From: Selaginella moellendorffii
Lineage: Eukaryota; Plantae; Lycopodiophyta
NCBI RefSeq assembly: GCF_000143415.4
Contig: NW_003314421.1
Span: 153,525-217,524, forward strand
Length of the DNA: 64,000 nt
Reading direction: 5' to 3'
The notes below the pieces were generated by a model. That model did not search any database, was not told the origin of the DNA, and saw only the letters and a list, made by a program, of their open reading frames with translations. The position numbers and the translations under genes are program-made. Numbering within the stretch: the stretch's first letter is position 1; the number at the start of each line of letters is the position of its first letter. Positions 1-58,097 of the stretch are shown here, piece after piece.

Positions 1-589
1 AAGCGGGGGGGGGGACATTGGGTTTCTTTTAGGGGAAAAAAATGGAGGCCAACAAAAAGAGTTTTGGGCCCCAAGGGGGGGGGGGCAAGGGGCCCAGCCC
101 CAAAAGTAAAGCCTTTTTAGGAAAAGGGAGAGTTACCCCGGAAGAAAGAAACAAAAAGAGTTCTGGGGCCAGAACACCAACGGTCCCATTCAAGTTCGGG
201 AAGACCAAGGGTTTTTCAAGGGGGGAGCTCCCCCCCAGGTTTTCCCCCCCCCCCCCCCCCCCCGAGACAAACAGTTTGTGAAATAGAGCTGTATGTCAGT
301 GGCACAAACCCTCCCAAGTTCCTAGGGGAGTGGATTGACAACAGAGTCAGATATGCCCCACTGGCAATCTTGATCACGCCAGGACAAGACATAGGCCAGA
401 CCCTAGAAGAAATACTGGCCTACAACTTTAACTGGAATCCACAATGGTTCTCGATCCAAGAAGATCATTTTATGGAGCAGGCACGTTCAGGTTCTGAGGA
501 ATGGTGAGAATCCCATTTGCATGGCCACTCCGTCCAATGGCACCATATCATTAGGTGGAGAGACAGTGTCTTAGCAGCGCCTAAGGATT

Positions 590-3500
590 CTACAATGGTT
601 AACATCAATGTGAGAACGTGGAACATGAGGGGTCTAAGAAGGAGAGATCATCAGCAAATAATAAGAGAACGAAATTTAGACAATACCATAGACAAGTAGA
701 AAGAGTGACTCAATGTTTTGACTTCTTGTGTGTGCAAGAGCATAGAATCTCAAGTGTGGACCTGGTTTATAAGTTGACCAAGGGAAAATATTTCTGGAAT
801 CCAGCAGTTTCACGAAGTGGTAGTAGTAAAAGGTTCATAGGAATCCCTAGTTGAAGATCATGCAATACTGGTACCGAGTAGAGTGTTTAAGATCGGGGAT
901 ATGTTAGTGGGGCTCCTGAATGTGTATGCGCCACCAGGGAGCTCTTCCGAAAGGGCAGACTTTTGGAATGAGTTAGTATGCCGACTACCTGCACAACCTT
1001 TGACATGGATGGTCATTGGAGATTTCAACTTTATGGAAGAAGAGCTAGACAAAGAAGGGGGAGAAATGAGAGAAAAGAGAAGAGCAATGTGGGCATAATT
1101 AGTGCTTGCGCTGGGGCTTGAAGATACATACAACATCCCTAGTTTTGTGCAACACCGGCCAAGGTACATATGGCAAGGACACCAGCAACAGGGAATCCAA
1201 CGAAGACTGGATTGGTTTTATGCCTGAGCTATATCAGAATAGTGGAAAATTGGACATAGCCACAGGATATAGAGATTTCTTAGACTACAACTCTGTATCA
1301 TTGACTCTGCCCATCTTAAAAAGGTGGGGAACAAAGAGGCTGCTGCCAATATCAAGAAAAAACTTAGAGGACAGGGATCTCAATGGACACATAAAAGAGA
1401 AGTGGAATCAGCAAGGGGAAGGGGATTTGCACCAGTTCATGATAAAGATAGCCAATGAGATACCAAAAAAAACATAGAGCAAGTGAAGAAAACTCTTCCA
1501 CAAAGTGGAAGCAATAAGAAGGAATATCGAAGCTATCAAGAGACTGATCAAGCTTAGCTTGCTAGATGCAACATTGAGAACTCAGTTAGCAAAGACAAAA
1601 GATCAACTTTTCACCCTAGAAGCAGAAAAGATGGAGGCATTCATAAGGCTGGGGCACCTCAAATGGATGAGCACGGGACAGTGGCCTCCAGGAGAAATCA
1701 ATGGAATAATTGTGCTCATCCCAAAAACAGGGGGAGATGCATCTCTGATCAAGAATTAGAGACTGATCTTGATGCTGAACATGCTTTACAAGATCGTAGC
1801 TAAGGCTTTAGCCAAGAGATTGCAACTGATACTGCCAGAAACGATACATGACACACAGAATGGATTTGTGGAAGGAAGACAGTTGGTAGACAATATATTG
1901 ATAGTGCTACTCACACAAGAACAAGTAAAGGACCAAGGACTAAAGATGGCAATAATACTTTTGGATTATAAGAAAGCCTATGATAGAGTGGATTGGGAAT
2001 TCCTGCAAACTATGATGAGGAGAATTGGCATTCTAGACAAGTTCATAAGATGGACAGCCACCTTATATCAAGGCGCATCAAGCAAAGTTACAATAAATGG
2101 GATAGTGGGGAACATGATCAAGTTAAAACGGTCAGTAAGACAAGGGTGTCCTCTAGCCTCTTTTTTGTTCTTTTCATGGTAGATGCACTAGCACATTATC
2201 TAGCAAGATTGGATGGGCCGGAGGGGTTGGTTTTGCCTGGGTGTAGAGACTCGCTACAAGACATGGTAGTGATAGCAGAAAAGCTGTTGAAATCTAGTGC
2301 CTTTGCTGATGATATGGGAATAATTGCATCAGGCTCCCTGGAAAACATGAGCAAAGTCAAGGAGGACTTAGACTTTTTCAACCTGGCAATGGGCTCAAAA
2401 ATAAACTGGGGAAAATTAGTGGGAATATAGTTGCCAAATTCAGACCTACCAAGCTGGGGGGAGGAGTGGGATTTTAAGTGGCTAAAACAAGGGGAAACAA
2501 CAAGATACTTAGGTTTCCAAGTGGGCCGGGACTATGACCCTCTCCCATAGAATCAAAAAGCAGTTGACAAGCTTAGAGATCAATTGAAATTCTGGGCATC
2601 ACGAAAGCTGTCCTTCTCGGCAAGATGTGTAGTGGCGAACAATATCGTGCTAGGGGCAATATAGTTTTTGGCAGCAGCATAGAATTTAGACAAGAAAATG
2701 CTAAAAGACATGAACAAGCTAATCAGGACATACATATGGAAGGGACAAGCGACAATCTCAAGAGGAGGGGCAAAGGTTGGATGGAGCTTGGTCGCAAGAG
2801 CGAAGTAGGATGGGGGGATAAACATAATTGATATAGAAGAACAATGCAAGGCTCTGCTATTCAAGATCTTTCATTGAATGAATATGCCTGAAAACCAGCC
2901 ATGGAAACTCCTACTACGTCACCAACTGCTAAAAGTCATCCTCGATAGACTAGAACACACAAGGCAGAATTGGGGAAAAGATGAAAGGTAGCTCTTCACT
3001 AATTGCATCTTAAAAATGACAAGACCAAATACATTCTCAGGGAAATTATTCAAGCTATGGAAAGAATTCAAAGGGAAGGTAGAAAAAAGAAAACTAGCAA
3101 ATAGCTATGAGTTGGATTGATAAACAAATATTCCTCAACAAACTATTCCAATGTAAGGGGAAATGCTTGGGAGAAATAAGAGACAGAGGAATAGACAAAG
3201 TATGTAGGGACCTGTACAGTGCCGGGATGAGAACATATGCAGAGGTTGACTCGATGCTGAAAGTGGGGGAAATGGAAAGAAACAGAGACATGCTAAAAGC
3301 CTTTTATGGCATGGAAATCTTGGCTCACCAGTTAAAAAAATTTGAAACAGCTTTTGAAGACGCATGAGAGTACTGCAAGCAAAGCATGGGGGAAGTCAAA
3401 GAAATGACACCAGTGTGGTGGACAGCCAATGGAAAGGTGATATATACGGCAACTCAAGATCAGACCAAGTGCGTTGTGTTCGATGTTGGGGTGGCCGGTT

Positions 3501-4405
3501 AACTGGTACCATACAAAGTACCCAAGGAAAGTATAAGACCGGACATGTCAAGAGTAGAGCCAATACGGGTAATAAGGATGGATAAGTAAACAGCATTGAT
3601 AGACCCGACAATAATGGAAGGTTTTGTAGCCAAGTTGTATTGGTTTAGGCAACAAAAATTAAGCAATTTGGTCTAGGATCCAATGGAATGAAATTGGCAG
3701 GGTAAAAAGAAGGAAGAATTCTTTGCATATGAGACAAGATTGGGATGAAGACTCATTTGGCCAAGTAGTGACTCGCTATTGGTATCAAGAATGAAATGAG
3801 CTAACATACAAGACATGATACAGCAGGTCCATAGCTTTGGGCAAATCCAAAGTAGCTTATCCATATGGTGGGAGTCTCGCCAAAACCAAGTGGGAGGCAA
3901 GGTTTGGGGACTATGTCTAGCATGTGATCACTCTGGGGGGGGCTTCAGAAATCACCTGTTTAGGGTTTAGGGTGTCCCCCACACCAAGTGCCACACTAGG
4001 GTCTGTTGACTATTGTTACTGGATTTGCATGATGGAGCGTAGAGCACACTATCTTGGTCCATATAATGAATTGTCTGGAAAGCTTCAATAAGGAAGGCTC
4101 TTGGGTATCCATGTGCATGGAGACAAGTATAGAAAAGCTTGCGAATTGCACATAAGCTCTCAGGGTTACTCTCTCAAAAGAGGTAATGCTGAAGTTCAGC
4201 ACGAATAAAAGCAATCTTTTGGTGTTGAGGATATGTTGAGTTCCATGGAAGATACTGGTATGCATTTAGTGGCTTTTGAAAGGGCATTTCTCAAAGCATG
4301 GGCCTTTGAAAAAATGGATGTAAGCTCTATTTCGTTAAAGTGGGAATTGTCATTATCCCACTTGTAAAATAAGGTTTCCAAACCTTTATATAGTATATAA
4401 ATATA
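590..4405 (+). mobile_element. Degraded L1-clade LINE ORF2 (endonuclease, RT, C-terminal region)
   Basis: EN motifs TWNMRGL, LCVQEH, NVYAP, IGDFN; RT motifs LDYKKAYDRVDW, VRQGCPLA, AFADD, YLG; many stops and frameshifts; AT-rich 3' end near 4370-4410. Confidence 0.9.
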
Positions 4406-4763
4406 ACAAAATTCAACTGCATTGAGGCACATGCCATTTTATTTTAAACAAGGAAATGTCTACTCAATCACTTCTCCTCCCCCTGCCACTGCTTCACCTC
4501 TCTCTTCTCCTTGTCATCGTCGTCCAATTTCTTTCCATCCTTTTAATATTGGCTCAGTTGCTCCGAGTCTAGGTGGAGCCCAAGTCCCCATTCAATCTTT
4601 ACTTTCCCTTTATTAATAAAACAACTTCGTAGACTTCCAATAACATGCTGTAACACTTCTAGTATAATGCAAATCCTCTCAAAGAATTGTCTTTTAATAT
4701 TAATACAATGGCATGGAACCCCATGCCATAATAAGTTACATTTTTAAATAAATACATGCCATC

Positions 4764-5626
4764 TCAGACTGTTATTTTTTGCCTCCAACGCCTATACAAT
4801 AATCTTGGAATTTCATCACTCTCCACACTATCAGGATTTAAACCCAATAGAAATGCCATCTCTTCTCTAATACATCCACGCTCACGTTCAGTGGTCGAAG
4901 AACCCATCCGGTTGAGCAGATTATGGAGATGCGGATAGTGCTTGGCTAGACAATATACATGCCATAAATGATGACTGGTGTCTGTCCGATCAAATGGCTT
5001 CTGATATACCGTTCCATCTGCCATTTGGTTGATTTCTGCAGCCACCTCCTGGACTGGCCGGTTCTCTATCACCATCGCTTCAAGCCGTTTTGCAAGGTCC
5101 CCCAGAACATACGGTTTCTTCTCCCTAGTTTCCATACTGCAAGAGATGGGGTGCACTGCATATGTGTGCGTGTTCACTGCAATTTTAATCGGCGAGTCAT
5201 CGATGATGAGGATTTCACTTGACCTAGCAGTCCGGTTCATCACTACAGCCTCTGGCTTGACGAAGATGGGCTTGCTACCCCTCACATGGACCATAGTCAA
5301 GCAATCCTCCTGCGTTAGGAGAAAGTCAAATGGTAATATTACTCGCGTCTGATCGTGCATCATCTGTAGCAACGTTAATGCATTGTGGCGCATCATGGAT
5401 GTCCAAACTCCCAATTGCAAATTGAACCCGGCCCTCTGTTTTAAGTGTCGCATGGTCATTATTAGATCCCGCAGTTTCTCCCGTGTGATTAATGTGAATC
5501 TGTCTCTTTTGACCAACTTGCGACCGCAGGCTTTGGAGGGTGCAGTGACATTCGAGGACGAGCCACGCTCATGGGAGAAAAGGACACCGTTCAGATCAAA
5601 AACGATACAGTACTTTCGCCGTGACT
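4764..5626 (-). other. FCP1-homology (NIF/HAD) phosphatase domain exon
   Basis: CIVFDLNGVL (motif I variant), VWTSM (II), FVK (III), LIIDDSPIK (IV). Confidence 0.85.
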
Positions 5627-8600
5627 CTGAAATGAAATGCGTCAGCATAAAAAATGGTATAAGTCAATTTTACCATCTACAATATTAGCGAATGGTGCTC
5701 CCGATGGTTGTTCAGAGGGTTTTGGTCGAGGAAACGTGAAGGGCGGAAATACTCTCCTCTGCAATGTGGGGTCAATCGCATCCGATGGCGTGTGGGCACA
5801 TGCCATTTCAGCTGTAGACTCTGGTACAACTGGCTCAACAGTGGCATGGGGTGGTTCCGATGGCGTGTGATCACACGCCATTTCAGCTGGTGCCTCCGTT
5901 GGCAAAGTGGACATGACCGAACAGGCAGCAGGGGCAGTGTAGGGTGGTTCCAACGGCGCGTAGTCAGACGATTGGGCACACGTTGAGTCCGTTGGAAATG
6001 AGGATACGACCGGCTCGGCGGCTGGGGCGGCCTCATGCGGGTCCAATGGCGCCTGGTCACCGTCAGTTGGATACGTGGACAAGATTGACTCAGTGGTATG
6101 GGCAGCATCAAGTGGAGCGTGGTCAGCTTGCTTGGTGTTGATATGGATAGTAGCCTCCACCAGCTCTGATGACTCTTGCAGGCAAGTAGAGTCCACTGGC
6201 GGATCCATATGCATGTCCAAATATCTCCCTTCGATTGAGATGGTATCCTCCCTACTGGCTACTAAAAACAAACTCATTAGCACATTGAATCGACTATACT
6301 GTACTTACCATCAAGTGCTATTTGGCGCACTGCTGATTCTGAAGGATTGGACATACGTTTCGACCCTTGCTTGGCACTATCCTTCCTCGACACTAAAGGC
6401 TAGAGTTTGTATCTTAATTCAACTGAATAATCTCTACTTACCATTTCTTCTGCGACCTACATGGACAATGTTAGAAATGGTAAAAGGTTAGGAATGGATG
6501 TACTATTATTTACCTGATGGTTTGTCTTGTATGACCTTCCTCCGCTGCTCTTTGGCCACCTCAGGCTGGCCATCGTCGTCATCATCGTCATCGTCGTTAT
6601 TGTGATCGTCACCATTGTGAGGACCATCCAAGTCCTCTTCGTCCTCCTCTTCTTCGTCCTCCTCTTCTTCGTCCTCCTCTTCTTTGTCCTCCTCTTCATC
6701 CTTCTGCTCTTCCTGCTCATTATCTTTCTCTGGCTCCTCATCCCCCTCCTGCATTTCTTCCATAGGCTGCTCAGGCTGGATGGCTTGTTTTTCCAGGACC
6801 ATCTTGGGAAAATCATCTGGCCGAGTCTCCATCTCAAAATACAAGACATCCATAGCCTGTTTTAGTGCTTGACCTAGGACCGTATCCTCACCCGACTGTC
6901 TTAACATGGTTTCTGCACATTCTTGCACCCTTTGAAGACGACGAGATGAGAAAAACGTGGCCCTGACTTGAAAAGCATCCCTCATCCATTGTACCTCTCC
7001 ATTGAGATTGGGGAAGGGGAGTCCGCCATAGGAATCTGAGTCAGAAGGTGGTGACTGGCTCCTTTCACTCAGCCCTTGATCTGCAATGAATGGCATGAGC
7101 ACATACGCCATAACCGCGAGGCATTACCTATCATCTTTTCGTTGCCCTTCTTCCTTTTCGAATCAAACGCCTCTGATCCCGACGACTGTCCAACGTGCTT
7201 TCGCTTTTTATGACCACTGTCAGTTTGAGCTTGGCTGGTGCTTGCCTGTTTTGCCTTTGAAGAAGTGTCTCCTGCAAGGAATGGCATGAGACCACACGCC
7301 ATTGCAAATATAATTTGTACCTCCTTTTTTCCTATTGCTTGTCTGTTTGTCCTTCTTCGACGCGCCACCAGTGCGCTTTTCAGTCCTCGTGTCTGAATAT
7401 TCACAACGATCTATAATCAAAATGGCGTGAGGCCTCACGTGACCTTACCTTGTGCAGGTTGTGAGCTCGGCCTAACATCAGTAGCTGTTAACGCCGTTTC
7501 AGCATCTGGGGGTGGCCACGCTCCTGCATACAGAGCTTGTGAGATAACATTTAAACTTAAAGTGCGTACTCACCAGGTTCGTAGAGAAGATACTGTTTTT
7601 CTTTGGCAACTGTAATTATATGCTCCATTGAAGTCACCTCTTCAATGGAGTTTGTCACCGCAACACACGGGACACCCTTGAGTAGTGCGGCTCGAAAGAA
7701 TAGTCCGCCGCAGTTGTACTCGACAACGCATTTGCCCTTGGAGTCACCCGCTATTGCGTTGAAGACCCAGCTGAGCATTTCCCATGCTGCACCTGGAGCT
7801 TTCTTTGGATTCAAAAGCTCCATAGCCGTCTTCAGTTCCTCAGGCACGGGTAAATTGACCTCCCTCAGATCAATTCGATTGGCCTTGTCGAACGAAGCTG
7901 GGAAGTCACTCCAGTCCCACTCTGCTGCAGGACCAATAACAAGGGCGAGTGTGAAGATGCGGACATTCGTCGGTATCTTCTTCTTAGCCATTATACCATG
8001 GATCTCCTGCATCTCCTTGCCTTTCAACCGAGCCTTCACCTCGTTCAAGGCCTTCCAGAACTTGTGATAGGATTCGGAGTCGTAGATCATATAGTGGACT
8101 GAAGATTCCACCTCCGCAAGTCCCACCATTAAGTCAATGATGGAGCTGACTTCGTCTACATGAGTGATCTCCTCGTTTGTGAAGTCCATCACACAAAAGA
8201 TGTTCTTGACCTGCTCATCTCCGCGGGAAACGATGCTCCTCCACCTTTGATCCTCATCCGAATTCACGTATACCCGGTAAGGTTCTTGATAGGCCTCTGC
8301 TGCGGGGTCGAGCTGTTTCTGAAGCCGGCGGTCGACATCCCTCTTAATGAAATTTGGATACTGATCCAACTTCTCAGCTTTACTTTTCGTGGCATCCCGC
8401 AGCAGATCGATGAACTTGGGGGCCCCCTTCACGTAGTCGTCGATGTCTTCATTTGACAAGTCCAGCTCTTCACCACGTAGAAGAGCATTAGCCACTGTCA
8501 GAAGGTCGTCGTCGTCTAGAGACCGCGAGAAACGCAAGGCGTTGAGCTTCAAATCATTGGGCTTCCGGCCGTCCTCCACACCCATTGAGTTTAGCAACTC

Positions 8601-10201
8601 CCCGTCATGGTACTTCCTCAGCACATCTACCCATTTGTCAAAAACAACTTTTGTCGCGAGTAGAATGTTATGGATGCTGAGTGTGTCATTGACCCCCAGT
8701 GTTTTCGAGAGAAGACTCGAGAATTCCTGCAATGGAAATGGCGTGAGGCCACATGCTATGCCACATGCAACGAGGCTTACCTGCCAGGCGCTAGTTGCTA
8801 GTGCATGTCCTTGTCCTGGTTTTTGTGGCTTCTTCAGTTAAACCCAGAGCTTCCGTGTTCGTGCCAATGTCTCGTGCAGACCCGATTTGTAGCACGTTTC
8901 TTGCTTGACATTCTGCGCGTGGGAGATGTATATGATAGATCGGAGGGGCGAGTTGCCTTTTATCAGGCGGACAACTCTTGTCTTGAAGACTTTCTTCACC
9001 TCCTCGCCCACCATAATATCCACAACTATCTCTTGCATCGCCAAGCTAGAATGCTGCCCGGAGACGGCATAGAACCGGATGTTCTGATCGTCCAACACCT
9101 TCCTATTGATCAAGTCTAGAAACCTCGTCTCGCCCTTCATTGTTCGGTAGTAGGGGATCACGTCTGCGATGTCGGGTGTTACTGGACTTGCCAGCATCTT
9201 CTGCTTCAGTTTCTCCACCCACTCATCAGATACTAGCCTGTGGTTGTATTTGCTTTGGATCTCGATACGGCTCACGTCGATTGTATATACTTTGTTGGAA
9301 TAGTAACAAGTACTATTATCTGCGACGATTTTTGCTGCCTCTTCTTGCTCTTTCTGCTCTTTGCGGCTCTTCTTTTTGGTGGGTGTAGTGTTCGAACCCG
9401 AGGCAATGGCATCACCGAGTAGCTTCTTTTTTGGAGCAGCAGAGTCGGACGTCGGCTTGAGCTTGACCACCCTTTTCTGCTTCGGGGTAGTTTCCAGATC
9501 GACCCCCTTCCCCTTCGCTTCGCAAACTGGAGGCACTCTCAACGGCTCAATGTTGGAATATAGTTTTTGAACATCGCCGTAGGTGAGGTCCGTGGATTCC
9601 ATGTGATCTTCATAGACCCGCAGCGTCTTTGAAATTGTGGGCCTCCTGGACAACCTCTCCCTAGCTCCCTCTAGGAATTCCTGATAGCCGCTGCCCCCCT
9701 CCGGGAAGCCGCTAGGATGTGCAAGGTGGATCTTGAAGGCGGACGCTGTCTCTACCACAAGTGCCAGTCCATATTCTTGCATGGAACTGCATGGAGTGTC
9801 TGTCACTTGGATGAGGATCCCCATGCATTCTTTTCTCCCACCATCTGTGTTGTACAGCATCAGATCCTCGCCTTCCATCCCGAAAGTCCAACTGGTGAGC
9901 TCCTCCCCCTTCTCTGCATCCACATTGACAGTGGCTGGAAGAAGAACGCAATTCCTCGCCTGTTCAGAAATGCACAACAATTAGAGCTGACAGATGAAAA
10001 GCTAGCAGCTGGAAATAACGTGAGGCCACACGCCATTCACCACTGCATCAGATGTCTTGAGGCTGCATCCTAAGATGGCGTGATGCTACACGCCATCTGT
10101 AACCGGACTGCACTCGAGAGCCCAATCGGTGCATGCCAATGTTGCTACTGAATGGCATGTGGCCTCATGCCATTTTCTACTTGGCCTAAAAGACTTACCA
10201 T
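4764..10201 (-). CDS. Multi-exon ~1,580-codon gene: ParB-like domain, degenerate N6/N4-MTase-like fold, basic/acidic low-complexity linker, Pro-rich repeats, C-terminal FCP1/NIF HAD phosphatase; one in-frame TAA at 8838-8840
   Basis: Manually spliced exons (minus): ATG 10201-10199 (tentative), 9959-8781, 8726-7574, 7523-7449, 7392-7321, 7271-7128, 7080-6514, 6456-6442, 6392-6309, 6261-5674, 5626-4764. All junctions are GT-AG and phase-compatible; internal introns 47-57 nt. Motifs FYAVSGQHS (ParB-like), VVEYNCGG..RAALLKG (MTase motif-I-like), VFDLNGVL/WTS/FVK/IIDDS (HAD). Confidence 0.75.
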
Positions 10202-10404
10202 TTGAAGCCGAATGGAGGCCGTGACAATCGAGGCCGGACTCGCTGGCGAATGTGCACTGTGTGTGCAGCGGATCGTAGCAGCAAGGCTACTCTGCCACTT
10301 ACAGTTGGAGAGTGGCGCTGAAATCTCCCGGGACGCCAAGTGGGCTGCGTGTGGGTGGCGGAGTGGGCGGCGGAGTTGGCGGCGAAGTTACAAACTGGGT
10401 GTGT

Positions 10405-10635
10405 CTTGAAGTGGACGCCGATGCACACGAGCGCGATGCGAGCGCGAGTGTGATGCAAGCGCGAGTGGACGCCGATGCACACGAGAAACCTGTAGAGAAG
10501 GCGCGAATGTGAGCGTGATCGCGAGTGGGAGCGCGATGCGAGCGCGAGTGTGATGCGAGCGCGGGCGCGAGTGTAGCGCGAGTGTGCGAGCGCGAGTACG
10601 AAGCAAAATGCAAAATCTAACCTCACACGCGCGAA
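10405..10635. repeat. CpG-rich short tandem repeats upstream of the minus-strand gene
   Basis: Iterated GCGAGCGCGAGTGTGAT units and two copies of GTGGACGCCGATGCACACGAG. Confidence 0.7.
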
Positions 10636-10942
10636 ATGTCACAACGGTTGGTAATCCCGCCACGTCATCATTCCTCGGACTTGGGCGCCACCATTAATTT
10701 CTGGATTTCCGCGCGCATGCAAGCACGCAAAATCCAAAAGAAATCCGCAACGTCATCATTCCTCGGACTGCATGCACGCGAAATCCAAAAGAAAGATCAT
10801 GATTGGGATATCATTTAATACCCTCGCTATATTTATACCATGCATGATTGGATATTCCAAAGCATCTTGTATTTCCAAAAATGGCAGATGTTCAGCTAAA
10901 TAAAGAAATTCTATCTGTTTCTATTTTTCTCTCAAATCAATA

Positions 10943-12300
10943 TTATAGCGTGTGGGCTCATGCAATTTTGAACCAAAGAAACCCAAAAAACGTTGGACCC
11001 AAAATAATTTGAAAAAACCCAAAAAACCCTTAATATTTTAAACCCAAAAATCCAGGCGTCCTGTGGCGTTATTCCTTGAATGGCGTGTGGGCGCATGCCA
11101 TTTTCAGGGCCAAATACTGAATGGAGAAAAATTCCCTTTCAGTGCAAATGCTGCAAGAGGCAGATGCCGAGCACAAAGGACTATAACTACCTCACATGAC
11201 ACAGATAAACTTTTCTCTATTTGGCAAAGATAAACTTTATAGCGTGTGGGCTCATGCAATTTTGAACCCAAAAAATGCACCAAAAAATTCTCGGCGTCAT
11301 CTGGCGTTATCTCTTGAATGGCGTGGGGCCGCATGCCATTTTCAGGGGCACATAGGAGTATATTCCTAGAATATTCTGACACGCGCGAGATTTTTTTGAG
11401 TTTTCTGGAGATCCAACCGTTAGATCGCAACTATATTTTACAGAATGGTATACAATGTCTTTCTTGATGACTCTGCAAAGAAGCATCTCGATCGGACACC
11501 ACATGAGACCACACGAGCCTTACAATGTTTCAGGGGCATTTGCCATAGATCCGACTGTTATTTTTCTCCAAGATTTTACAGTTTGGTGTGCATTGACCTT
11601 TCCATCGACACTGCAAAGGGACATCACAATCAGATGCGGGATCACAAGAAACTAACTTCACTAACTCTGGTTTCACCAAGATCTACGTAAGGAGTTATGA
11701 AATGAAAGGACCCTCTCTATTAAAATGTGTTTATAGTCCTAGGGGCATTGTGACATATCAAAGGATTTTGCATCAAGTTCTGTATTTGCATGTTTATCAA
11801 GCTACTGAATTGCTAAACCCTAAACCCTAAACATGTGGCAAATGCTGCGTGAAGAAAGATGCCCTTTCTGGGCAAATGCTGTAAGAGGCAGATGCCGAGC
11901 AGATGTATCTCAGGCTAGCGAAGGGGACAAACGAAAGCTAGCTATAAACATGACGGGATGCAAATAGATTACTAGGCTGGTCCTACGAAAATCAAAAACC
12001 ATAATTGAAAACATTGAAAATGCAAAAAGAAAGGTTTATAATATTTTTGAATTTTAAGCAACCAAAGGAATGTAAGTAGGGCATGTGTTTGTAAGTTTAA
12101 AAATGCCTCAACCACTTAAATTCCCAAGTAAATAAAGCTGTTTCTATTTTTGGTACAGGTAAACTTTATAGCGTGTGGGCTCATGCAATTTTGAACCCAA
12201 AAATGCACCAAAAAATGCTCGACTAGCATTATTCTTTGAATGGCGTGTGGCCTTATGTCGAGCATTATTCTTTGAATGGCGTGTGGCCTTATATTGCCAT
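10943..12300 (+). repeat. Three imperfect direct repeats (~10943, ~11237, ~12166), each carrying palindrome pairs
   Basis: TATAGCGTGTGGGCTCATGCAATTTTGAACC...TTGAATGGCGTG occurs three times. Confidence 0.85.
11813..11831 (+). repeat. Short interstitial plant telomeric repeat (CCCTAAA)n
   Basis: ctaaaccctaaaccctaaa. Confidence 0.7.
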
Positions 12301-12553
12301 AAATGGACGTACACACACAGCATAATTATTCCTTTACACGGCGAATAATCTTGGCGCGGATCGCTGACATGGCATGGCAAAGTTCGAATCACTGACATGG
12401 CACAGCTGGATCGAGGCAAGGACATGATGTGACAAAGTTCAACCTCCGACAGCAAAGTCTAGAAGCTACTCAATTTGAAATTTGTCAGAGGAATCATAAG
12501 ATCTGGTTTGTCAGAGGATTTGATGTGACGTTCAAATTATCCGCGGCTGGGAA

Positions 12554-12653
12554 NNNNNNNNNNNNNNNNNNNNNNNNNNNNNNNNNNNNNNNNNNNNNNN
12601 NNNNNNNNNNNNNNNNNNNNNNNNNNNNNNNNNNNNNNNNNNNNNNNNNNNNN
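12554..12653. other. Assembly gap (100 N)
   Basis: Run of N. Confidence 1.
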
Positions 12654-12676
12654 AGAGAGTTGCAAAAGGGACCCTT

Positions 12677-15600
12677 GTGTCTATGGATCGAAACTTTGTT
12701 ATACACTGTCAAAGGCTTAGGGAAGGCAATGCTGCTGTATCAGTAGAGACTGTCTTCGATGGGAATGTGGTCGCTATTGAACGAGGAGAGATGGTCGTCG
12801 GGGTAAATGTTGTTGTTGCCTTGAAAAATCTTCAGAAGAAAGCAGATGTTGGGGACAGCGCAAGTGCGACGCATGTTCCCTCCGTGGATCTTAAGAACCG
12901 TGCTACATGGATTCAAGCAAAGGTGTTTCTAAACAACCCCGAGGGGGAGGTGGTAGCTGAGGGCTTAGCCACAGTTGTCGATCCAAGAGATGCGGTTGCT
13001 AATCAAGAATTGGGCTGGGATGATATTGGAGTTGCGATTTTAAAGGTTGTTGACACAGAAGAAAACAATCTGACTATTAGAAGCATTGTGCGGTGGAAAT
13101 TGAGGCACTTAGTGTTTGAGAATGTGAAGGATTCACAATCAAACACCACTACAACTGATGACAGAACATCTCTTCATGGGAAAAGAAAGTACACCTTCCT
13201 AAAGCACAGCCAAAGGGATCTGAGCAACGAACCGAAAAGGCAGAAAATGGCGATGGAGGTTCGAATGGTCTTAACAGTTGCTTGTTGCAAGAGGAGGTGC
13301 TGTCAACATGCTGATTGGGATGCTATTGAAGAGGAGAGAGCAAGATACAAGACATTGTCCTGGAAGGCAGCTCGCAATTTTGTGTATGAGGCATTACGGT
13401 CATTTGTTGATGCTTCAGAACATCAGGTGGGGGGCATGGTCTTCCAGAGGGGTTTGGTCTGCATGAAGGCATGGAGAATCATTTATGGAGTCCCTCGAAG
13501 CACATTCTACAGAATCAAAACTGAGTTCGAAGAACAAAGGGTTCAACAGGCAGTCCATGAGAACAACGGTACGCGCAAAACCAGGGGTCATGTTGTATAT
13601 GGAGAGGCAATCTTCAAGAGGTTTGTCGAGACATATAGCGAGCAGCAACCACATAAAACCCGCCTCTTGGAAGATGGAACACGAGACACCCAACGAGTTC
13701 TCCCTTCCATGTATACCAAGGGGGCCATATTGGAAGATGTGAATCGGGAACTCCAGAGTAATGGCTACAGGAAGCTGAGTCAATCTAGATTTAGTAGATT
13801 GTGGAGCAACAGGTTCAGGGATGTGAGTATAGGAAAGTACTCCAGCTTTTCAAAGTGTGACGAGTGCACTGCTATCAAAATGGCTTTGTCGAAGAATTCT
13901 TGCAGCGCTCAAGAGCGAGAGACGTTGGTTAGAAGGCGGCTCGACCACAACATCGAGCAGAGAAGCTGCAGGACTGCATATTATCATAACAGGATTCTCT
14001 CCATGGAGAGACCTGACTCTTACCTCTGCATCATCCACGACAAAATGGACCAGAAAAAGACGTGCTTACCTCGACTCAATCCTGCCCCCAAGGCAATCTC
14101 TTCATCCATACAGCTGCCTGTGTCTCTGTTTGGCATAATTGCTCATGGGCATGGTGCCCAGAACTATGGGAACTTCTTTGTACCTCTATGGGGTGGCGGG
14201 GGTGCAAACATGATGATTGCGTCCCTAGCAAAACACTTAAGGTCTCTGCAAAGTGCGCAGACTGAGCTGAACGGCCAACCCTTGCATAAGGCCCTTGTCG
14301 ATCGAACCCCATACAGGGTTCAGCTGGAGGAGGAGCAAAGGCTTGCAGTATCGCGTGGGGCCCCATGCCATCCCAGTGAATATGTTGGCCGTCAGATTGT
14401 AGGGTTATCACGTGAGGCCTCATGCCATTCCGACGAGGCTGGTCGCCCGGTGAATGCACAGCCTCATCCAAACGAAGCAGAATCTCAAGGAAGTTCTTGC
14501 GGCCGATGTGGCCTTCCACCCCATCTTCTGCTCCAAACAGACAATGCTGGCAGTGAGAACAAAAACATGTACGTCTTCACGTACTTGGCGATGCTTGTTG
14601 CCAAAGGCATATTTGAAACGGTTACACTTGGCTTTCTCATGGTTGGGCACACTCATGAAGACGTGGATGCCATGTTCAGTCACCTGGCAGAGTCCCTCCG
14701 GCGATCCAATGTCCTCACCCTCCCACAACTCTACGATGAATTCCAAAATTGCATCAAAGGCAATGTTGAAGCTGCACTTCTGACAGAGGTTCCAGACTTT
14801 AAGGGGTTTGTAAGAAGCTACATCAGGGACGGATCTGAAATGCTGATTGGCCACTCCAAGCCTCTTCAGTTTCATTTCAGCATGCGTGACGGTGCTCTAG
14901 TGATGAGGTACAAGATGAGAGAATGGGACACAGTGTGGCTGCCAGTGGACGGCATTGAACTCTTCAAGAGAGATCCCATAATTGGGGAACCTATGATTCC
15001 TCAGGGTTCCCCACGGCCGATGCACCCGGATGGACTCAAAGACCAGGAAAGTATAGTGGCCGGGATTAGACAGCATATTGCCTTCTGGAAGAGGGGGTTG
15101 GTGTTTGGTGGAGAATCCTATTTTCAGAGGTGCAAGCCTTTGCTCGAATACTGGGAGAAGATTATATCTGCTATCCAAAATGGGCCGGTTGTATATGAAG
15201 AATTGGAAGAGTCCTTTTGGCCAGAACCCAGAGCACCAGATAGTAGCGGAACAATGTCCTCTGGAAATGCAGTGACAGATAACGATGTTGAGGATCATTA
15301 TTGTGGGCCGAGGAACAAGAAGCCGGATTCAGCATTCAATCCAGTACAGGTCTGCAAAGGAATGGTCGTGCTTGTCAGACCCAGTAATAAAAAACAAATG
15401 ATATGGGTGGGGCGCTGCATCACTGATGCAGAGGAGGACGCGGAAACTAACTCCTTCAATGTAACTGTGGAGTGGTTCAAGCCAAGTTCCGGATATACGA
15501 AGGATTGCCTAGAAAAGAGATGGGTGCTGAATCCAAGGGATCCCAGCATGAGCATATCGGTGGATAATGTTGTGCATGGTTGGATGCGGAAGCAGAGTGC

Positions 15601-15749
15601 CACCATCACCTTGCCAGACCATGCAAGAGATGCAGCAAGAGCATTCATAACCCGGGTTCAAGGTGAGATTCATTAATATTCCTTTACTAAGTTTCTAATG
15701 TATTTTATTTCAAGGTGAACAATCCGAATCTGAATCAGAGGAGGCGTGA
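12677..15749 (+). CDS. DDE/RNase H-fold transposase (DUF7869/Sola-like motif set) with N-terminal Tnp1/En/Spm-like domain and C-terminal beta-rich (SH3/Tudor-like) domain; 5' end may lie in the gap
   Basis: Uninterrupted 999-aa ORF; CCKRRC, FSKCDEC, IIHDKMDQKKTCLP, LQTDNAGSENKN, FLMVGHTHEDVDAMFS; N-terminal VVAEG..VDP..V...ELG; probable last intron 15663-15714 and exon GEQSESESEEA* ending 15749. Confidence 0.85.
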
Positions 15750-16361
15750 TGGCATGTGGCCTTACGCCATTCCTAGGTGAGATGATACAAATAACAAGTA
15801 TAAATTCTTAGTTGTTCTAGCAAATCTTACTTAAAGTTCAAGGTGAACAAGCCGAATATGAATTCATCGGATTGTTATAACAAATTGCGAGGTGATGGCA
15901 TGAGGCGATACGCCATTTGAGAGTGGTAGCCATTCTTATATGAGGTGAGTGAAATATTTATTAGAAATACCTCATTCAATTGTGCACTTCTAAGTCTTGG
16001 TCCACTCAGTACTGTTTGCATGTTTTTATTTTAATTCTTTCTCTAAAATGTTATTTAGCATGTGGCTTCATGCCATTGCTCTCCACAATCATGCATTGAA
16101 TTTTTCTATCCTTGCATAATACTTCTCCATATATATAGCATGTGCGCACATGTGATATGGTTCATTAGGCCTGATATAGTGTGTGAGGTAAAACAAAGAT
16201 GATGTGACATATGCATTTACCAATCATACGTGCATAAATCTAATAATATGGGCCACACGCCATATTATTAGATTTATTGTACCATCATTCCCTTGCAGCG
16301 TGTGTGTTGGTTTCCTTTCATAACACAACGAACTCCATATTTTAGGGTGAAGAGCGTTCTC

Positions 16362-16619
16362 ATGGCAAGCACAAAATCTGTAAGTGAGGCAGAAAAGGAG
16401 ACGGAGAAGGAGATAGGTGAAGATGTAGAATATATAAGTCTTCCAAACTCCCCGTACTATACTCCAGGTGATCATTTTTCTGAACAAACGGCAACATTAA
16501 CAACTATCGAGAACGCCCCAGTAACGTCAGAGACAACAATCCAAAGCAAAACAACTGACCCGGAGAAGGATGATAGTACCGCTGAGAGTACCAAAAAGGA
16601 GGTGTCCACTAGCACTTAG
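16362..16619 (+). CDS. Small Ser/Thr/Glu-rich ORF or additional exon inside the element
   Basis: Open frame MASTKSVSEAEK...STST* preceded by an acceptor-like TTTTAG at ~16346 and followed by a palindrome. Confidence 0.3.
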   Translation: MASTKSVSEAEKETEKEIGEDVEYISLPNSPYYTPGDHFSEQTATLTTIENAPVTSETTIQSKTTDPEKDDSTAESTKKEVSTST

Positions 16620-17109
16620 GCTTATAATGGCGTGTGCCCTCATGCCATTTACTTGATCACCAAATACCTTTTTCCCTTTGCACTAGTATATTTTAATACC
16701 GGTCTGAGAAATAGAATGGCATGTGCCCTCAGGCCTTTTACTAAATCACCTTTGAAAGAAATGCAAGCCTCTATGTCGTAAAAAAAAGGTACTAGAGAAA
16801 TTCCTTAATAATATGAATGTTATTTAGTTTCATGAAAATACACTAAGGGTCAAATGAGTTAAACGACTTCTCCAGACTAGCAATGCCTCTTGCTACACCT
16901 TCACAATTAGATTCGTTAGAAAAAGATAACATTGAATAATATCTAAATGTTCTCACCATTAAGTTATATGTCTAGCTAATAGGAATGACGTTCATCTTGG
17001 AAAGCTCACCACACGCTCAATGAACAAACAAATAATGTGTGTGTGCATGCCATCGCTCTTCTTTAGCTTCAGATTCGGCTTGTTCACCTTGACAATGAGA
17101 TTTATTATA

Positions 17110-18140
17110 CAACCAGATGGACTCAGTCTGGACACAAAGTCACCGCGCTAGTCACCATGCCCCAGATATGTCTAGCCCCTGGACAAAAAACATATAATTT
17201 CACGTCATTTTCAAATACTTGAAAATTTGTACCTAGTCCCATTTTACTGAATAAATCCCACTTTAACGAAATAGAGCTTATGTCTAGAATATCCATAGAT
17301 TCAAATGAGATCACTGAGGTGATCTTTATAGAATTGCAGAGGCTTCCATAGCCAGCCAACCGGCATTCCAAGCTCTCTTTTGATCCATCCCAAATTCTGA
17401 CACCATCGTCAATATATCTCTTAAGATATATTGGCCAATTAGAAGAGATGGCCTTAAACTCGTCCTCGAGGGAACAAAGAAAAAGGCAAGCATACACTAC
17501 AGCAAAGTTGGACCCATAGCAGTGCCTTGGATTTGAAGGAAATAACTCCCATCGAACTCAACATAATTGTGTTCAAGGATGAGTCCTACAGCAGCCATGA
17601 CAAAGCGTACTTGCATTGAATCTCCAAAATTTCTATATATGAATTTATGGAGGCAATAGAGCCCTTCACGTGTGGGAATGCTCGGGTAGAGCAACTCCAC
17701 ATCAAAAGTGAAGAGGAGGCAGTCTTTTGGGAGCTGCTTTTTATGAAGATCATGAAGGAGGGTGTGGGAGTCCATAAGAAAGGTTTCCTGTTGGAGGAGA
17801 ATGCCAAAAAGTTGGCGGTGAAGCCATTTTGCAAGTGGCTTCCAAATGTAGCCAACATAGCTAGCAATTTGTCTCCCATGAATTGGCTGCTTGTGTATTT
17901 TTGGAAGAAAATACAACAAGCAAGCCTTACATGGAGGTGAGGGCAAAGTGGCGAGGTACTTGGCTGTGTTCTTGTCGAGCCACAAGCAAGATTTTTCTCA
18001 TTCTTGTCAAGCCACAAACAAGATTTATACGAGATAAATCTTGCTTGTGGCTTCAGAAGTGGGCTCTTCGGAAACTCAATTTGCAAGCGAGAGCATCACC
18101 CTTCCCAGCATTTGGTACCACCTCTCAATCTAGCCTGTCC
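17110..18140 (-). mobile_element. Penelope-like element (PLE) reverse transcriptase fragment
   Basis: DKN motif, LYFLPKIHK..GRQI, LFTFDVELLYPSIP, NYVEFDG..LQIQGTAMG, YLKRYIDD; frameshifted. Confidence 0.85.
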
Positions 18141-20228: not shown

Positions 20229-20749
20229 TCGATCTCACCAGATAGCAGCAGGGACCTAGCAAAACCCTAATGTTGGATGAATTTTATGGAGGCAATGGTG
20301 GAAGGCACCCAATACCATGGCTGCTGTGATCGAAGGTGCAGCCAGAGGTAGAAGAGCGTACAGAGGAGAGTGTGCAATCTCCCCGCACTTGCTACCATCG
20401 GCGGGGGCATCTGCCGTGAAATTTAGGGAAGCATTGTTCCCCTTTCTTTGTTTCTGCTGTGTACTCACTCTCTTGTTAGCAGCATGGAGAACAGCCACAA
20501 GGGAGTCATGGCCGTCAGACACAAAATCCCTAGGCCCCAAAGTGGAGCCGAAAGGGTGCCACGTGGTAGTGGCCGAAGTGAAAGCCAAACGAACGTAACA
20601 CGTTTGGACTAAAAGCTCCAACTTGAAAGGTTGAGAGCGGGAGTGAAACTCCCAACAAAGTGCTCGAGGAACAAGCACAAAGCGAGCAATAAGCGAGGCT
20701 TCAAAAAGGGACCCAAAAGGACCAACACATGACACGTGGAAGTGTCTGA

Positions 20750-21112
20750 GATAGAGTCCGAGATGGACCCGAGTTAGAGCCTGAGGTGGAGTCCGAGATG
20801 GAGTTCGAGATGGACCTGAGTTGGAGTCCAAGATGGAGTCCGAGATGGACCGAGACGGAGTCCGAGATGGACTGAGACGGAGTCCGAGATGGAGTCCGAG
20901 ATGGAGTCCAAGATGGACCAAAACAGAGTCTGAGATGGAGTCCGAGAGGGATCCGAGAGGGATCCGAGATGGAGTCCGAGATGGAGTCCAAGATGGACTG
21001 AAACGGAATCCGAGATGGAGTCCGAGAGGGATCCGAGATGGAGTCCGAGATGCACCCGAGATGGACCCAAGATGGAGAGTCCAAGATGGACCGAGATGGA
21101 GTCCGAGATGGA
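20750..21112 (+). repeat. 12-bp minisatellite (GAGATGGAGTCC)n inside LTR
   Basis: Tandem GATGGAGTCCGA units; also at 25370-25620, 27075-27790, 48960-49170, 49390-49790, 50050-50305 and inverted at 59945-60192. Confidence 0.95.
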
Positions 21113-24100
21113 GTATATGAAGTATATCACCACTAGTGTTGGCATTGGAAGGTCCTAGGAGTGGGCCTATCCTTGAGGAGTAGTAAGTCGAGAGGACATG
21201 ACTCTCCACTCAAGTTCATGCGTGAACTTGGGCGTGATGTGGTGGATAGAAAAGGGGCCAGTAAGGAAACGACTTTGGGATCTTGGAAACAGTATAAGGG
21301 TTTCCTCAGAGAGTTGAGGATATGATCCAAATAAGTGTTTGACATAGCCAACTGGCTAATATAGTTGTGTTAAACAACTATAGTTTAGATCACGTGAAAG
21401 ATAGAGACTCCAAAGCAATAAAGGAGTCACAAGATTATCCTCATATAGTTGAGGTTGGTGCTCATGAATGTGAGACCAGAAGTAATGACCGCAAGAAGTC
21501 AAATACGGAAAAGGACATGAGTCCTTGAAATGGTAGCCGGAGCTACCTCTAATAAATGCTGGAACAACCCAAGGAGTTGGGGGTGTACTCAGAGGATGAG
21601 TTGGTATTCTCATCACATGGACAAGTGGTCCTAAGGGGTAAAAGGTTGCCCCAAGAGAACAAATCAAGTGTCAGAGTAACACTTGCAAAGATGGTCTTTG
21701 TGAGTAGGACTTGAATACAAGAAGTAGTATTCCAGTGAGCTGACATCTCAAAGGTAGGACCTCATGGGTTGTCGGATGACAAAGTCCAAAAAGCTGGATG
21801 ACTCAAATAGAGTCAAGGAATATTCCTAAAGGATTGATGGAAGCATTTGGATTGAGGTGTGTTGTACCCCACGAAGGATGGGGGGGATCATAAGATCCAA
21901 GGATGAGAACAGAGGGTATCTTATCGATGGTAGAGTGGGCCATGCTAAAGTCGTGGGAAAGGTGTTCCCCAAAAAAGAAAGCAATTTTGGCATAGAGTTG
22001 TGTGTGAACACTGTGGTGCAGTGCTAACTGCTAGTTGGCATGAAAAAACGACTACCTTGGTCTTGGCAAAGACCGAGACACAAGTAAGAAGTGTTATAGA
22101 GGTAGGCTTGTGGAGCCATTAGTGGGGAGACACAAAATGTGCCAAAGTGAGATACCTTGAGGTTATGTTGATGAGTTCATGGGAACCCCTTGCCAAGGGA
22201 ATGGCATAGCCTAAGCTGGAAGGCATGTGGTTAGAGTGTGGTGACCCAGATAATGATGGAGGTGTGGAAGCACCAAACAATGAGTTGTAGGACTTGACAA
22301 TTATAGGGCAATTAAGCAAGAGGTGCAAGATAATTGGTTAAACGGGTAGAAGGTAGCTACCCAAGACTTCTTAATGGCATAAGGAAGTTAGATATACCCT
22401 TATGAGGGATAAATTGCTTATGTTGCGATATAGTGAATCAATGTCGAAAAAGGAAATGCTCATTGACAAGAAGACCATCATTGAGACACCCAAACACTCT
22501 AGAACACTAGGAGGTGGTGTTTAGTGTCGCGAAGGCAATGGATAATGCCCAAGGGACAAAGTCCCTAGCAAATGAAGGATAGGAGGTGCTATCCAAATGT
22601 CCAAGGTTGTGGAGATAGGAGAAGTCTGTTTACCCAAATTGGACAAAGCCAAAGAGGGATTTTGGCAAGGCTAGTGATGGGCATATGGAGGCCTATAATT
22701 AGCAACGGTAATCCCGGTGTGTGGGATTATAAGGTGAGCATGCCCAGATTGAGGAACCACTCCCTAAGCTATTGGGTAGGTTCATCCCTATGAATACTTG
22801 CTAAGGCGTGGTAAAATGTGGAAAGCTATCCTCCTAGTATGGAGGAGAATAACCAAAGGAAACATATGGGGCCAAAAGGCAAATAGTATTGGGCTGGAAC
22901 TGAACTATAGAAATCGAAGGGCATAACTAACGGTGGTTATGCAAGTTGAGAGTGGAGAATCAAGAGGATGTTCGAGGATGTTGTTACTAGCAACTGCGGT
23001 GCCATGGATAGTCCAAAATGTGGAATTATCCATGTTGGACCATATGGTGAGTAGGGAGCTTGCAAAAGAGAAGCCTTAGCAAGCTAAGGAACAGAGTTCC
23101 TTGAAGGTTCCCAAAGACAATTTTAGGTAAATAAGTACGTAGAAAGCCAAGTGTAAATGGTTCCTAAAGCGCGTGAAATCAGAGTGGCGCAACAGAAGCG
23201 TGGTCTTGAAGCTAGCTATGAGGCGAGGCTATCAAGGTTGGGGAAGTAGTTCCCGAGCGTACAAAGAGAGGGCTTTGAACAAAAGTCGATGGTTAAGGAC
23301 TTTCACGCTTATGCATGAACCATGTTACGGTGGCCGGATGACTTGCTACGCAAGATTAGCGAGTCAGGGGAACAAATCCCCTAGTTGAAGGTGCTAACTT
23401 CAAAAGGGGTGGCCCATGGGGCCGAGCATGGAGGAGTCCATGCATGATCACAGACTTTTCAAGCGAGAGGACTTGGCAATATATGCCCTAAGCTGTGATC
23501 TATAGCGTGCTTTAAGTATAAATTGTTGCACCGGCGTGGGGAGTCACGCCAGGCATCCTGTGCAATGCCATCTGTAGATGCATATATGGAGGTTGGGTTC
23601 GAGTCCCGACCCTCTAGTGCTTAGGTTCGAGTCCCAAATTACTAGGGCATGGTGATGGTTTGGAATATGAGGACACTCATTTTTCGGTGGTCATGGACTC
23701 TCAGTGAGGAGACTGGTTTGGGCACACTGCCAAGCGAGGGATGCCTCGGAGTCATGATGCACGGTTAGATTGCTTAGTGTGGCTTAGCATATTTAACTTG
23801 AACACTTTGGTGCGAGTGGCACCAAGGACGTGGTGAATGAGATGGGGACACCCAGTCTCAGTTGCTATGGACCCTTAGCCGGAAGGGCTGGCTTGGGTGC
23901 ACCGCCAAATGTGGGGGATGCCCCCGGGGTCATGGTGAACAACTTAAAGGTCTGGAAGACCTAATGCCTATTGGCAAACTTGTTAAGGTGCCAAAGTGTG
24001 ATCACTAGGTGATCTTATGGCTAAAACAAGGACAAGGTCCTTGTGAGGATAAGGGATAAACTTCCTAGTTCAAAGTGTTGGTTTGAACTATTGATGATGG

Positions 24101-29155: not shown

Positions 29156-29716
29156 TGTAAGCAACTAAAGAGAACAACTTGAGAGATGATCTATAGGGTT
29201 CAAATATAAAAGAAAAAGGCCGATAAATAATAGTGCACCCCCTTTTCTAATTGGTTAAGGGTCTTGAATAGTATTGGGCTGGATGACCTCTCAGAAAGTT
29301 CAAATTCAGGAGCTTACATTTGGTATCAGAGAGGTCTTGGGTCCGACTCTGTTGGTTCACTAAGGGAATCACACCATATGTTGATTGATACTTGGCAGGT
29401 CCAGTTTGCTCTAGCTGGGCTTGACCCAAGGGGTAGGGTGTCAAAAGAGTAGAGCTCAAGAGAGAGTTGTGGCTCTCAGCTTCCATTCACGAGGGCATGA
29501 ACTTGCAAGCAAACATGGTGGATTGTAAGCAACCAAAGAGAATGATTTGAGTGATGATCCATGGGGTTCAAATATAGGGGGAAAGGGCCTATGAATAAGA
29601 GTGCACCCCCTTACCAATTGGTTTAGGGTCTTGGGATAATTGGGGTTAAATGTCCTTGAGTTTGAATAGTACTAAGTTGGGTGACCTCCCGAGAAGTCCA
29701 AATTCAGGAGCTTACA
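29156..29716 (+). mobile_element. Cassandra-type TRIM, older copy
   Basis: LTRs 29156-29318 and 29524-29716, PBS TGGTATCAGAG, TSD GAGTT/GAGTG. Confidence 0.88.
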
Positions 29717-57080: not shown

Positions 57081-57472
57081 GAGATTAGAGAGAAGGGAGA
57101 GATTAGGGAAATTCTCGATGGCATCCTTCCAAAGTAGCGCTTCCCGGATCCCCTAGCTTGGTTTGTTCATTCTAGTGAGCCAACGCATTGCAAAGAGCTT
57201 TTCCTAGCTGCCTTCAAACAGTTTCCTTAGACACTATAGATAGGAATAGAAATAAAGTGTGTAACTTGTGAACCTTAAAGTGAAATAAAAATGACACTAC
57301 AAATATGGCAATGGCTAAGCAAACATCTAAACGTACAACCTTCCACTGTTTCCCCAGTCTTGCAAGTGTTTGGGGAGCAATCTTGTTTGAACATTTACCC
57401 CAAAGATGAATTGGCGAGTAAGATTACTCACCTAGACACCTAAAGTAGTAAGAAACAAATGTATATAAATGA

Positions 57473-58034: not shown

Positions 58035-58097
58035 GATCCATTCTCTCCCATTTCAAAAATATTTTAAGTAATTCTAATAAGTTCTTTCATGTTTCTA

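Follow-up and report, generated by a model that had tools for sequence, protein, structure and literature searches.

Why do several tiny introns of a single gene each carry a copy of one 22-bp palindrome? The question is raised by a stretch of Selaginella moellendorffii DNA (contig NW_003314421.1, positions 153,525 to 217,524), the 64,000 nucleotides of which are called the window here and supply all coordinates below. An earlier note on this DNA suggested that the palindromes are binding sites kept in places where coding is not affected, that they belong to an introner-like unit which created the introns, or that they form a hairpin affecting splicing. The first suggestion holds up in our analysis, while neither the introner nor the splicing hairpin does. 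The note recognised neither the transposon around these introns nor the kind of gene that they interrupt: they belong to the accessory gene of an autonomous-type, cut-and-paste DNA transposon of 12,958 bp (4322–17279) that carries two head-to-head genes and is present in the window as a decayed copy. From sequence comparisons and structure models, we lean towards the view that the ParB-like product of the accessory gene binds the palindrome as duplex DNA, and that the site is specific to the transposon family, was placed in pre-existing non-coding DNA and probably serves an anti-silencing function like that of VANC. That it is a self-recognition site for either one of the two element-encoded proteins appears quite likely.

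Distribution of the palindrome

The palindrome has the form ATGGCRTG-N6-CAYGCCAT. With up to two mismatches it occurs 22 times in the window, compared with 0.07 times per shuffle (30 shuffles), and 21 of these copies lie inside the element. When 21 of these copies were used to train a position matrix, 27 sites reached a score of 15 or more, 25 at 4416–16737 and two near 57.5 kb; since the matrix was trained on its own sites, the count with up to two mismatches serves as the independent one. Scored sites excluded from the 25 are one at 17032 (score 10.6, below the cut) and three outside the element.

Seven of the 25 element copies are intronic, 14 lie in other non-coding DNA, two in an exon and two in the transposase open reading frame (ORF); the 18 copies outside introns had been omitted by the earlier note. 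The idea of sites parked in non-coding DNA is supported by the preference for non-coding over coding sequence (21 of 25 copies, p = 7e-6), the density being 10.1 copies per kb in introns, 3.2 in other non-coding DNA, 0.7 in the transposase and 0.4 in exons (introns versus exons, p = 2e-5; introns versus other non-coding DNA, p = 0.018). Two copies are located 3' of the accessory gene (4416 and 4708, spanning 4416–4729), six between the genes (10945, 11080, 11239, 11318, 12168 and 12240, spanning 10945–12261) and six 3' of the transposase (15749, 15895, 16055, 16135, 16627 and 16716, spanning 15749–16737). The two copies in a coding exon of the accessory gene (5785–5881) fall into a Pro/Thr-rich low-complexity linker, and the two in the transposase ORF (14350–14428) into a length-variable insert between the presumed catalytic aspartates.

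Such a pattern could also arise if the palindromes were internal sites for the transposase, used in synapsis or self-activation and tolerated by the ParB-like gene in its introns. Confinement to the element, avoidance of coding sequence and independent decay of the palindrome arms (see below) fit transposase sites equally well, and in a 2026 preprint transposases are reportedly described as sequence-specific activators (10.64898/2026.08.24.746577). However, the palindrome is not part of the 24-bp terminal inverted repeat (TIR), and since the copies are spread over the whole element and no more than 4 of the 25 come within 1 kb of either end, they are unlike terminal transposase sites. Furthermore, the element encodes a protein of a family known for palindrome binding, and copies of another palindrome lie around the homologous gene of two relatives. 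We therefore regard internal transposase sites as unlikely.

Introns of the accessory gene and their age

The accessory gene (4764–10201, minus strand) is represented by a frame-compatible model of 11 predicted exons and about 1,580 codons, for the last four introns of which the splice consensus decided between 17 frame-compatible alternatives. Five of its introns, at the coordinates given in the earlier note, run from GT to AG on the minus strand and contain the palindrome. Four of these are tiny and hold one copy each, which makes up 39–47% of the intron length: intron 2 (8727–8780, 54 nt, palindrome 8738–8759), intron 4 (7393–7448, 56 nt, a degenerate copy with three mismatches at 7422–7443 near the donor), intron 5 (7272–7320, 49 nt, palindrome 7281–7302) and intron 6 (7081–7127, 47 nt, palindrome 7090–7111). 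The putative intron 1 (9960–10198, 239 nt) holds three copies, at 10015, 10075 and 10152, and has no homology support; the predicted first exon is a bare ATG and likewise unsupported. The note was also right that the remaining five predicted introns (7524–7573, 6457–6513, 6393–6441, 6262–6308 and 5627–5673, minus strand) are palindrome-free. Outside support by homology exists for intron 8727–8780 only, the other introns being predicted from splice consensus and reading frame. None of the contigs of four runs joins across any intron, but contigs drop rare variants, so intron-less copies are possible. One run guessed to be RNA (X20) retained the intron sequence and looks like DNA.

The sharing of sequence by several introns of one gene is a feature of introners, as far as the accessible part of the literature describes them (PMC9860276), and the palindrome could be the core of an introner whose insertion made these introns. 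In three of the tiny introns the palindrome lies 9–11 nt from the acceptor and the 3' ends are similar, one pair agreeing in 14 of the last 15 nt. Against this stands the age of intron 2. The homolog set comprised 15 matches at E ≤ 0.001, one of which, a yeast repeat protein (P0029), was removed as a chance match. Relatives of 22–34% identity share the position of intron 8727–8780: several ORFs of relatives in genomic DNA stop with W-K-V or F-x-V where the window has its donor in the alignment, while the Selaginella RefSeq protein XP_024528744 reads WQ-EF continuously across the junction, lacking the 18 intron codons, and the Riccia proteins have a gap at the same place. Four metagenome loci (L005–L008) were obtained from 117 candidates. 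L007 and L008, with 26–27% identity, have a GT..AG intron at this position and L005 has a donor there, whereas the sequence of L006 ends before it. Since lycophyte, liverwort and metagenome homologs have intron 2 in common, it is, by these alignments, older than the motif, and the comparison of intron positions among homologs that the earlier note had proposed as a check argues against a recent gain.

Intron age was assessed for intron 2; introns 1 and 4–6 lie in unalignable regions, and the undatable age of introns 4–6 is a point in favour of the introner. Nevertheless, the intron ends revealed no terminal repeats (1–5 of 10 matches) and no target duplication beyond the splice consensus, features that only some introner families possess. 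The flanks of the four tiny introns, with the palindrome masked, showed no significant likeness in six of six pairs (p 0.14–0.91), a comparison of short sequences with low power. The similarity is thus interior and not end to end, and interior similarity between introns is what the cited text, in its accessible part, excludes from introners as secondary insertion (PMC9860276). The fixed acceptor distance that had suggested an introner is explained by the branch-point slot discussed below. An origin of these introns from an introner is consequently highly improbable, and the palindromic introns are not a new route of intron gain.

Hairpin and branch point

In an RNA the two arms of the palindrome could pair, and a hairpin kept to regulate the splicing of tiny introns by hiding the branch point would be consistent with two observations. 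The four tiny palindromic introns have folding energies of −9.7 to −14.5 kcal/mol, compared with −0.7 to −9.3 kcal/mol for the five palindrome-free introns, and the palindrome overlaps a branch-point-like motif. However, any palindrome folds, most copies lie outside introns, in intron 2 the transcript-strand copy contains an A-C mismatch, and none of 27 arm departures from the consensus is compensated in the opposite arm. At the variable CG position only 9 of 25 copies pair, while 15 have G-T or A-C, and in the commonest form of the palindrome one arm carries CG while the opposite arm carries CA. Uncompensated decay is expected of a duplex site. The arms would then be two half-sites on double-stranded DNA that decay separately at a methylated CG, and not a selected stem, which makes the proposed effect of a hairpin on splicing very unlikely.

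The overlap with the branch point seems to have another meaning. By the plant branch-point consensus, four of the five palindrome-free introns have a CTNAY motif whose A is positioned between −15 and −17. Of the four tiny palindromic introns, three have no such motif at the usual distance other than the CTCAY of the palindrome (−16, −16 and −18), with branch-point-like A residues at 8744, 7287 and 7096 in introns 2, 5 and 6; in the fourth the motif of the palindrome lies further away, at −36, and there is an alternative at −25. On the transcript, YTCAY is read in each of the four tiny-intron copies, as compared to 3 of the remaining 21 copies when these are read on that strand (Fisher p = 0.003; p = 0.006 when both strands are considered). 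It is likely from these positions that in three tiny introns the palindrome doubles as the branch point. An intron of some 50 nt would have room for the site only where it overlaps the branch-point slot, so that tiny-intron copies would be retained when oriented to give CTCAY in the transcript.

The accessory protein

Three domains were assigned to the accessory protein, all encoded on the minus strand: an N-terminal domain like ParB, Noc and KorB (8895–9308, fold match), a degenerate fold of beta-class N4/N6 DNA methyltransferases (7587–8291, fold match) and, in the last exon, a NIF/FCP1-like phosphatase domain in a DLNG form (5166–5612, PF03031, E=5e-6). The structure model covers exons 2–3, with a mean predicted local distance difference test score (pLDDT) of 53 and values of 70–94 across most of the N-domain. 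Foldseek matched this model to Noc, ParB and KorB, the best match being Noc 7ol9 (E=6e-5), and residues 218–355 align with ParB 7bnk (Z 11.5, root-mean-square deviation (rmsd) 2.0, 95 aligned residues). ParB-type matches were again obtained for the model of a spliced Riccia homolog (pLDDT 75; Z 8.5, rmsd 3.1, 100 aligned), while Pfam and PDB sequence searches did not name a ParB domain. The middle region is predicted to be helical, and the Foldseek alignments span 220–350 columns of Noc/ParB. Residues 557–791 align with M.MboIIa in a part of low model confidence (Z 9.2, rmsd 6.9, 153 aligned), and the methyltransferase fold reached Z values of 8–9.2, middling scores, against M.MboIIa, CcrM and N4CMT. 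Weak matches to PF01555 were present in seven of nine scanned Riccia homologs, and the FCP1-like domain also occurs in L008 and in Riccia homologs.

The accessory gene has homologs of named origin in Selaginella, Diphasiastrum and Riccia. In Riccia sorocarpa alone 48 homologs are annotated (P0041, P0051–P0097); most of them are fragments, and several bear a weak label as N4/N6 methylase or FCP1. Liverworts thus have a large family of such genes. No longer full-length homolog was detected among 3,374 candidates, which is weak evidence. By the features tested, on sequence and model, the accessory protein would stand outside both the CTP (cytidine triphosphate)-clamp family and the VANC family.

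Relatives with a different palindrome

The window motif was found in none of the four loci L005–L008. Instead, L007 and L008 carry a different 22-bp palindrome, GGCTCRAACTTAAGTTYGAGCC. It is present in nine copies in L008 (none in shuffles), all nine of them non-coding by exon assignment (p = 6e-5). Two copies are located in a 392-nt intron of L007, none in the orthologous 89-nt intron of L008. The arms of this palindrome also vary from CG to CA, and 17 of 19 departures are uncompensated. Upstream of its accessory gene L008 contains an approximately 100-bp tandem array (1–900) with several other palindromic sub-motifs.

Binding by the accessory protein and its alternatives

If the palindrome is bound by the ParB-like protein, a dimer of the accessory protein would contact the two 8-bp arms, and sites every 0.06–2.1 kb would let the protein coat the whole element. 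Its other domains would then shield the element from host silencing or maintain transcription in the manner of VANC.

Several observations weigh against binding by the accessory protein. Box II of the query reads GQHS, and all 13 other alignment rows covering it have GQHS or GQHT and no GxxR; as the arginine of GxxR is required for nucleotide binding, according to the accessible part of the source (PMC12704722), its absence across the family makes a CTP sliding clamp doubtful. The structural alignments end at the N-domain and do not establish a helix-turn-helix, and a wide fold search with the homolog model returned no helix-turn-helix family among the listed matches. The catalytic motif of the methyltransferase is degenerate, with DFTN here, DVTHP or DLTHP in Riccia and DVHG in L008; active beta-class amino-methyltransferases have (D/N/S)PP(Y/F/W). 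L007 and L008 represent one lineage, their contigs contain no transposase, and the GGCTCRAACTTAAGTTYGAGCC copies that lie upstream in L008 sit in the 100-bp tandem array, which may be an unrelated repeat. Neither palindrome is present in L005 (1.6 kb), including its homologous intron, or in L006 (1.2 kb). The branch-point test was post hoc and comprised four introns of a predicted gene model. Finally, six variant palindromes that keep the core of the element's motif, GYRTGAGGCCTYAYRC, are found outside the element at 57470–58035. This cluster is possibly the relic of a sister family, or the motif may not be private to the element. The variants are followed downstream by a sequence resembling a splice acceptor and by the decayed remains of an acidic frame, for which no match to the proteins or the family of the element was detected.

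The cluster at 57.5–58.0 kb would also be expected if the motif were a site for a host transcription factor, or a repeat spread by slippage, tandem duplication or gene conversion, with no element-encoded partner. Some copies are indeed part of larger duplicated blocks (10903/11197/12126 and 11046/11284), and the common phase 1 of introns 3–10 together with exon sizes of 75, 72 and 144 nt for exons 4–6 hints at exon-intron duplication in the gene. Most copies, however, share the 22 bp only, as the dissimilar masked flanks of the tiny introns illustrate; copies persist in frame in both genes; and the relative has a palindrome of different sequence in the same layout. Thus, a host site or a passively spread repeat is a distinctly doubtful explanation.

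The enclosing transposon

The element is bordered by 24-bp TIRs, the left one (4322–4345, plus strand) being a perfect match to the right one (17256–17279, minus strand), and by a 4-bp target-site duplication (TSD) ATGT (left copy 4318–4321, right copy 17280–17283). Contigs of runs X1 and X6 represent the empty site, with the flanks joined and a single ATGT copy. The right boundary at 17279 coincides with contig ends in runs X4 and X6, and a contig of run X5 enters a different flank past this position, that is, another insertion site. In X6 the depth drops from ~258 to ~3 across 17279, which fits a repeated element, the depth value not being a copy number. Joined to each other, the two flanks form one reverse-transcriptase-like frame. 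The insertion target (17280–18100 and 4000–4321) is a minus-strand reverse-transcriptase relic with a YIDDG motif, which we take to be Penelope-like; runs X4 and X5 had no contigs on the right flank of the window. The element is ~99% identical among X1, X4, X5 and X6, runs bearing four different organism labels, and this near-identity may reflect close relatives, mixed samples or horizontal transfer.

The second gene encodes a DDE/DDD transposase in a single exon (12524–15676, plus strand; start masked by an N gap at 12555–12654) that matches Pfam DUF7869 (E=2.5e-42). Its homologs conserve the motifs DKMDQ, DN and HTHED, with three Asp motifs in the alignment, and the three conserved Asp are probably catalytic. 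We assume that these motifs resemble those of Sola. The Sola superfamily is described, in the accessible text, by a 4-bp TSD, TIRs of 11–1124 bp and a DDD transposase (PMC10741241). With its 4-bp TSD, short 24-bp TIRs and DDD enzyme, the element fits a Sola-type transposon by sequence features.

The window copy of the accessory gene has a premature stop (8838–8840) and lacks ~153 nt at 8470/8471, positions at which other runs differ. Many of the window's differences common to the other runs are C-to-T or G-to-A, including this stop. At 16244–16280 other copies are ~30 bases longer and the window retains half a palindrome, so that intact elements may hold one extra site there. GC-rich 17-bp tandem repeats lie upstream of the accessory gene (10420–10600), and a short telomere-like tract is found between transposase and accessory gene (11803–11822). 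Searches of viral contigs yielded no relatives of the transposase or of the ParB domain; the palindrome matched four viral loci once each, which we regard as chance.

Elsewhere in the window, decayed LINE (long interspersed nuclear element)-like endonuclease and reverse-transcriptase frames (RVT_1 match) occupy 560–3900 on the plus strand. Repeats of ~400 bp occur at 26193–26791, 29155–29720 and 47970–48530 and contain a stretch presumably akin to the internal promoter of 5S rRNA, a feature of Cassandra-like or SINE3-like elements. Arrays of 12-bp units of the GTCCGAGATGGA type lie within another repeat family (20744–21114, 25378–25619, 27075–27790, 49388–50307 and 59945–60202).

Comparison with known systems

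In the open-access texts searched, we found no description of the element or the palindrome; subscription journals, Repbase and preprint supplements were outside the scope of this search. The closest case in print, as judged from the accessible portions of the sources, is the accessory gene of Sola1-1_Ec32 from Ectocarpus, which combines ParB-like and N4C/N6A methyltransferase domains and was proposed to bind and modify its own element (PMC12477816). Both are giant Sola-type elements with an accessory gene on the strand opposite to the transposase that encodes ParB-like and amino-methyltransferase domains. Compared by description, the Selaginella element differs in its land plant host, its 13 kb length, an extra FCP1-like domain and degenerate methyltransferase motifs. 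A precise candidate site was mapped here, while the text at hand on Sola1-1_Ec32 gives no target sequence.

PAG3 of the Bostrychia Plavaka elements is another ParB-like protein encoded by a giant DNA transposon, and inverted repeats were proposed to be its target (10.1101/2025.02.11.637652). In the available text, however, these repeats form tandem arrays adjoining the gene, the effector is a 2-oxoglutarate oxygenase and the transposase is of EnSpm type, whereas here single palindromes are dispersed over introns and coding linkers.

Demethylation was demonstrated for VANC of Arabidopsis, and like VANC/VANDAL the present system would join an element-encoded accessory protein to a short motif that is specific to the family and located in non-coding DNA, in introns as well as intergenic and terminal sequence (PMC5735166, PMC10398659). 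The accessible text also reports that the VANDAL motif is gained and lost fast inside introns (PMC5735166). Yet VANDAL elements are Mutator-like and have a 9-mer in same-orientation tandem arrays, in contrast to the 22-bp palindrome and ParB-like fold described here, and the DUF7869 transposase, 4-bp TSD and 24-bp TIR set our element apart from Mutator-like transposons.

The N-terminal fold and the repeated palindromic sites are reminiscent of ParB/parS, Noc, KorB and VirB/virS. VirB provides, according to the part of the literature available, an example of a ParB-type fold that serves anti-silencing in bacteria (PMC10770331). Unlike ParB/parS, Noc and KorB, the accessory protein lacks the GxxR arginine, no ParA gene was seen in the element, and the gene is eukaryotic, contains introns and encodes a domain fusion.

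Significance

Accessory genes with ParB and methyltransferase domains are known from algal transposons, but binding to the own element is only a proposal there, as far as the accessible text goes (PMC12477816). Two candidate protein-site pairs with different 22-bp palindromes make the idea directly testable by cross-binding. If true, it would explain the evasion of methylation by giant transposons in non-seed plants and would offer a source of orthogonal DNA-binding pairs, and the overlap with the branch point would be a compact case of one sequence acting as DNA site and splicing signal.

More tentatively, early-diverging land plants may host a widespread self-recognition system derived from parS/ParB, in which each transposon family has its own ParB-like protein and its own 22-bp palindrome, coats its full length against silencing and rewrites the branch points of its tiny introns to accommodate the site; we consider this broader proposal possible, though doubtful at present. 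If it is true, it would represent a second plant anti-silencing system, of bacterial origin and independent of VANC, with swappable protein-site pairs.

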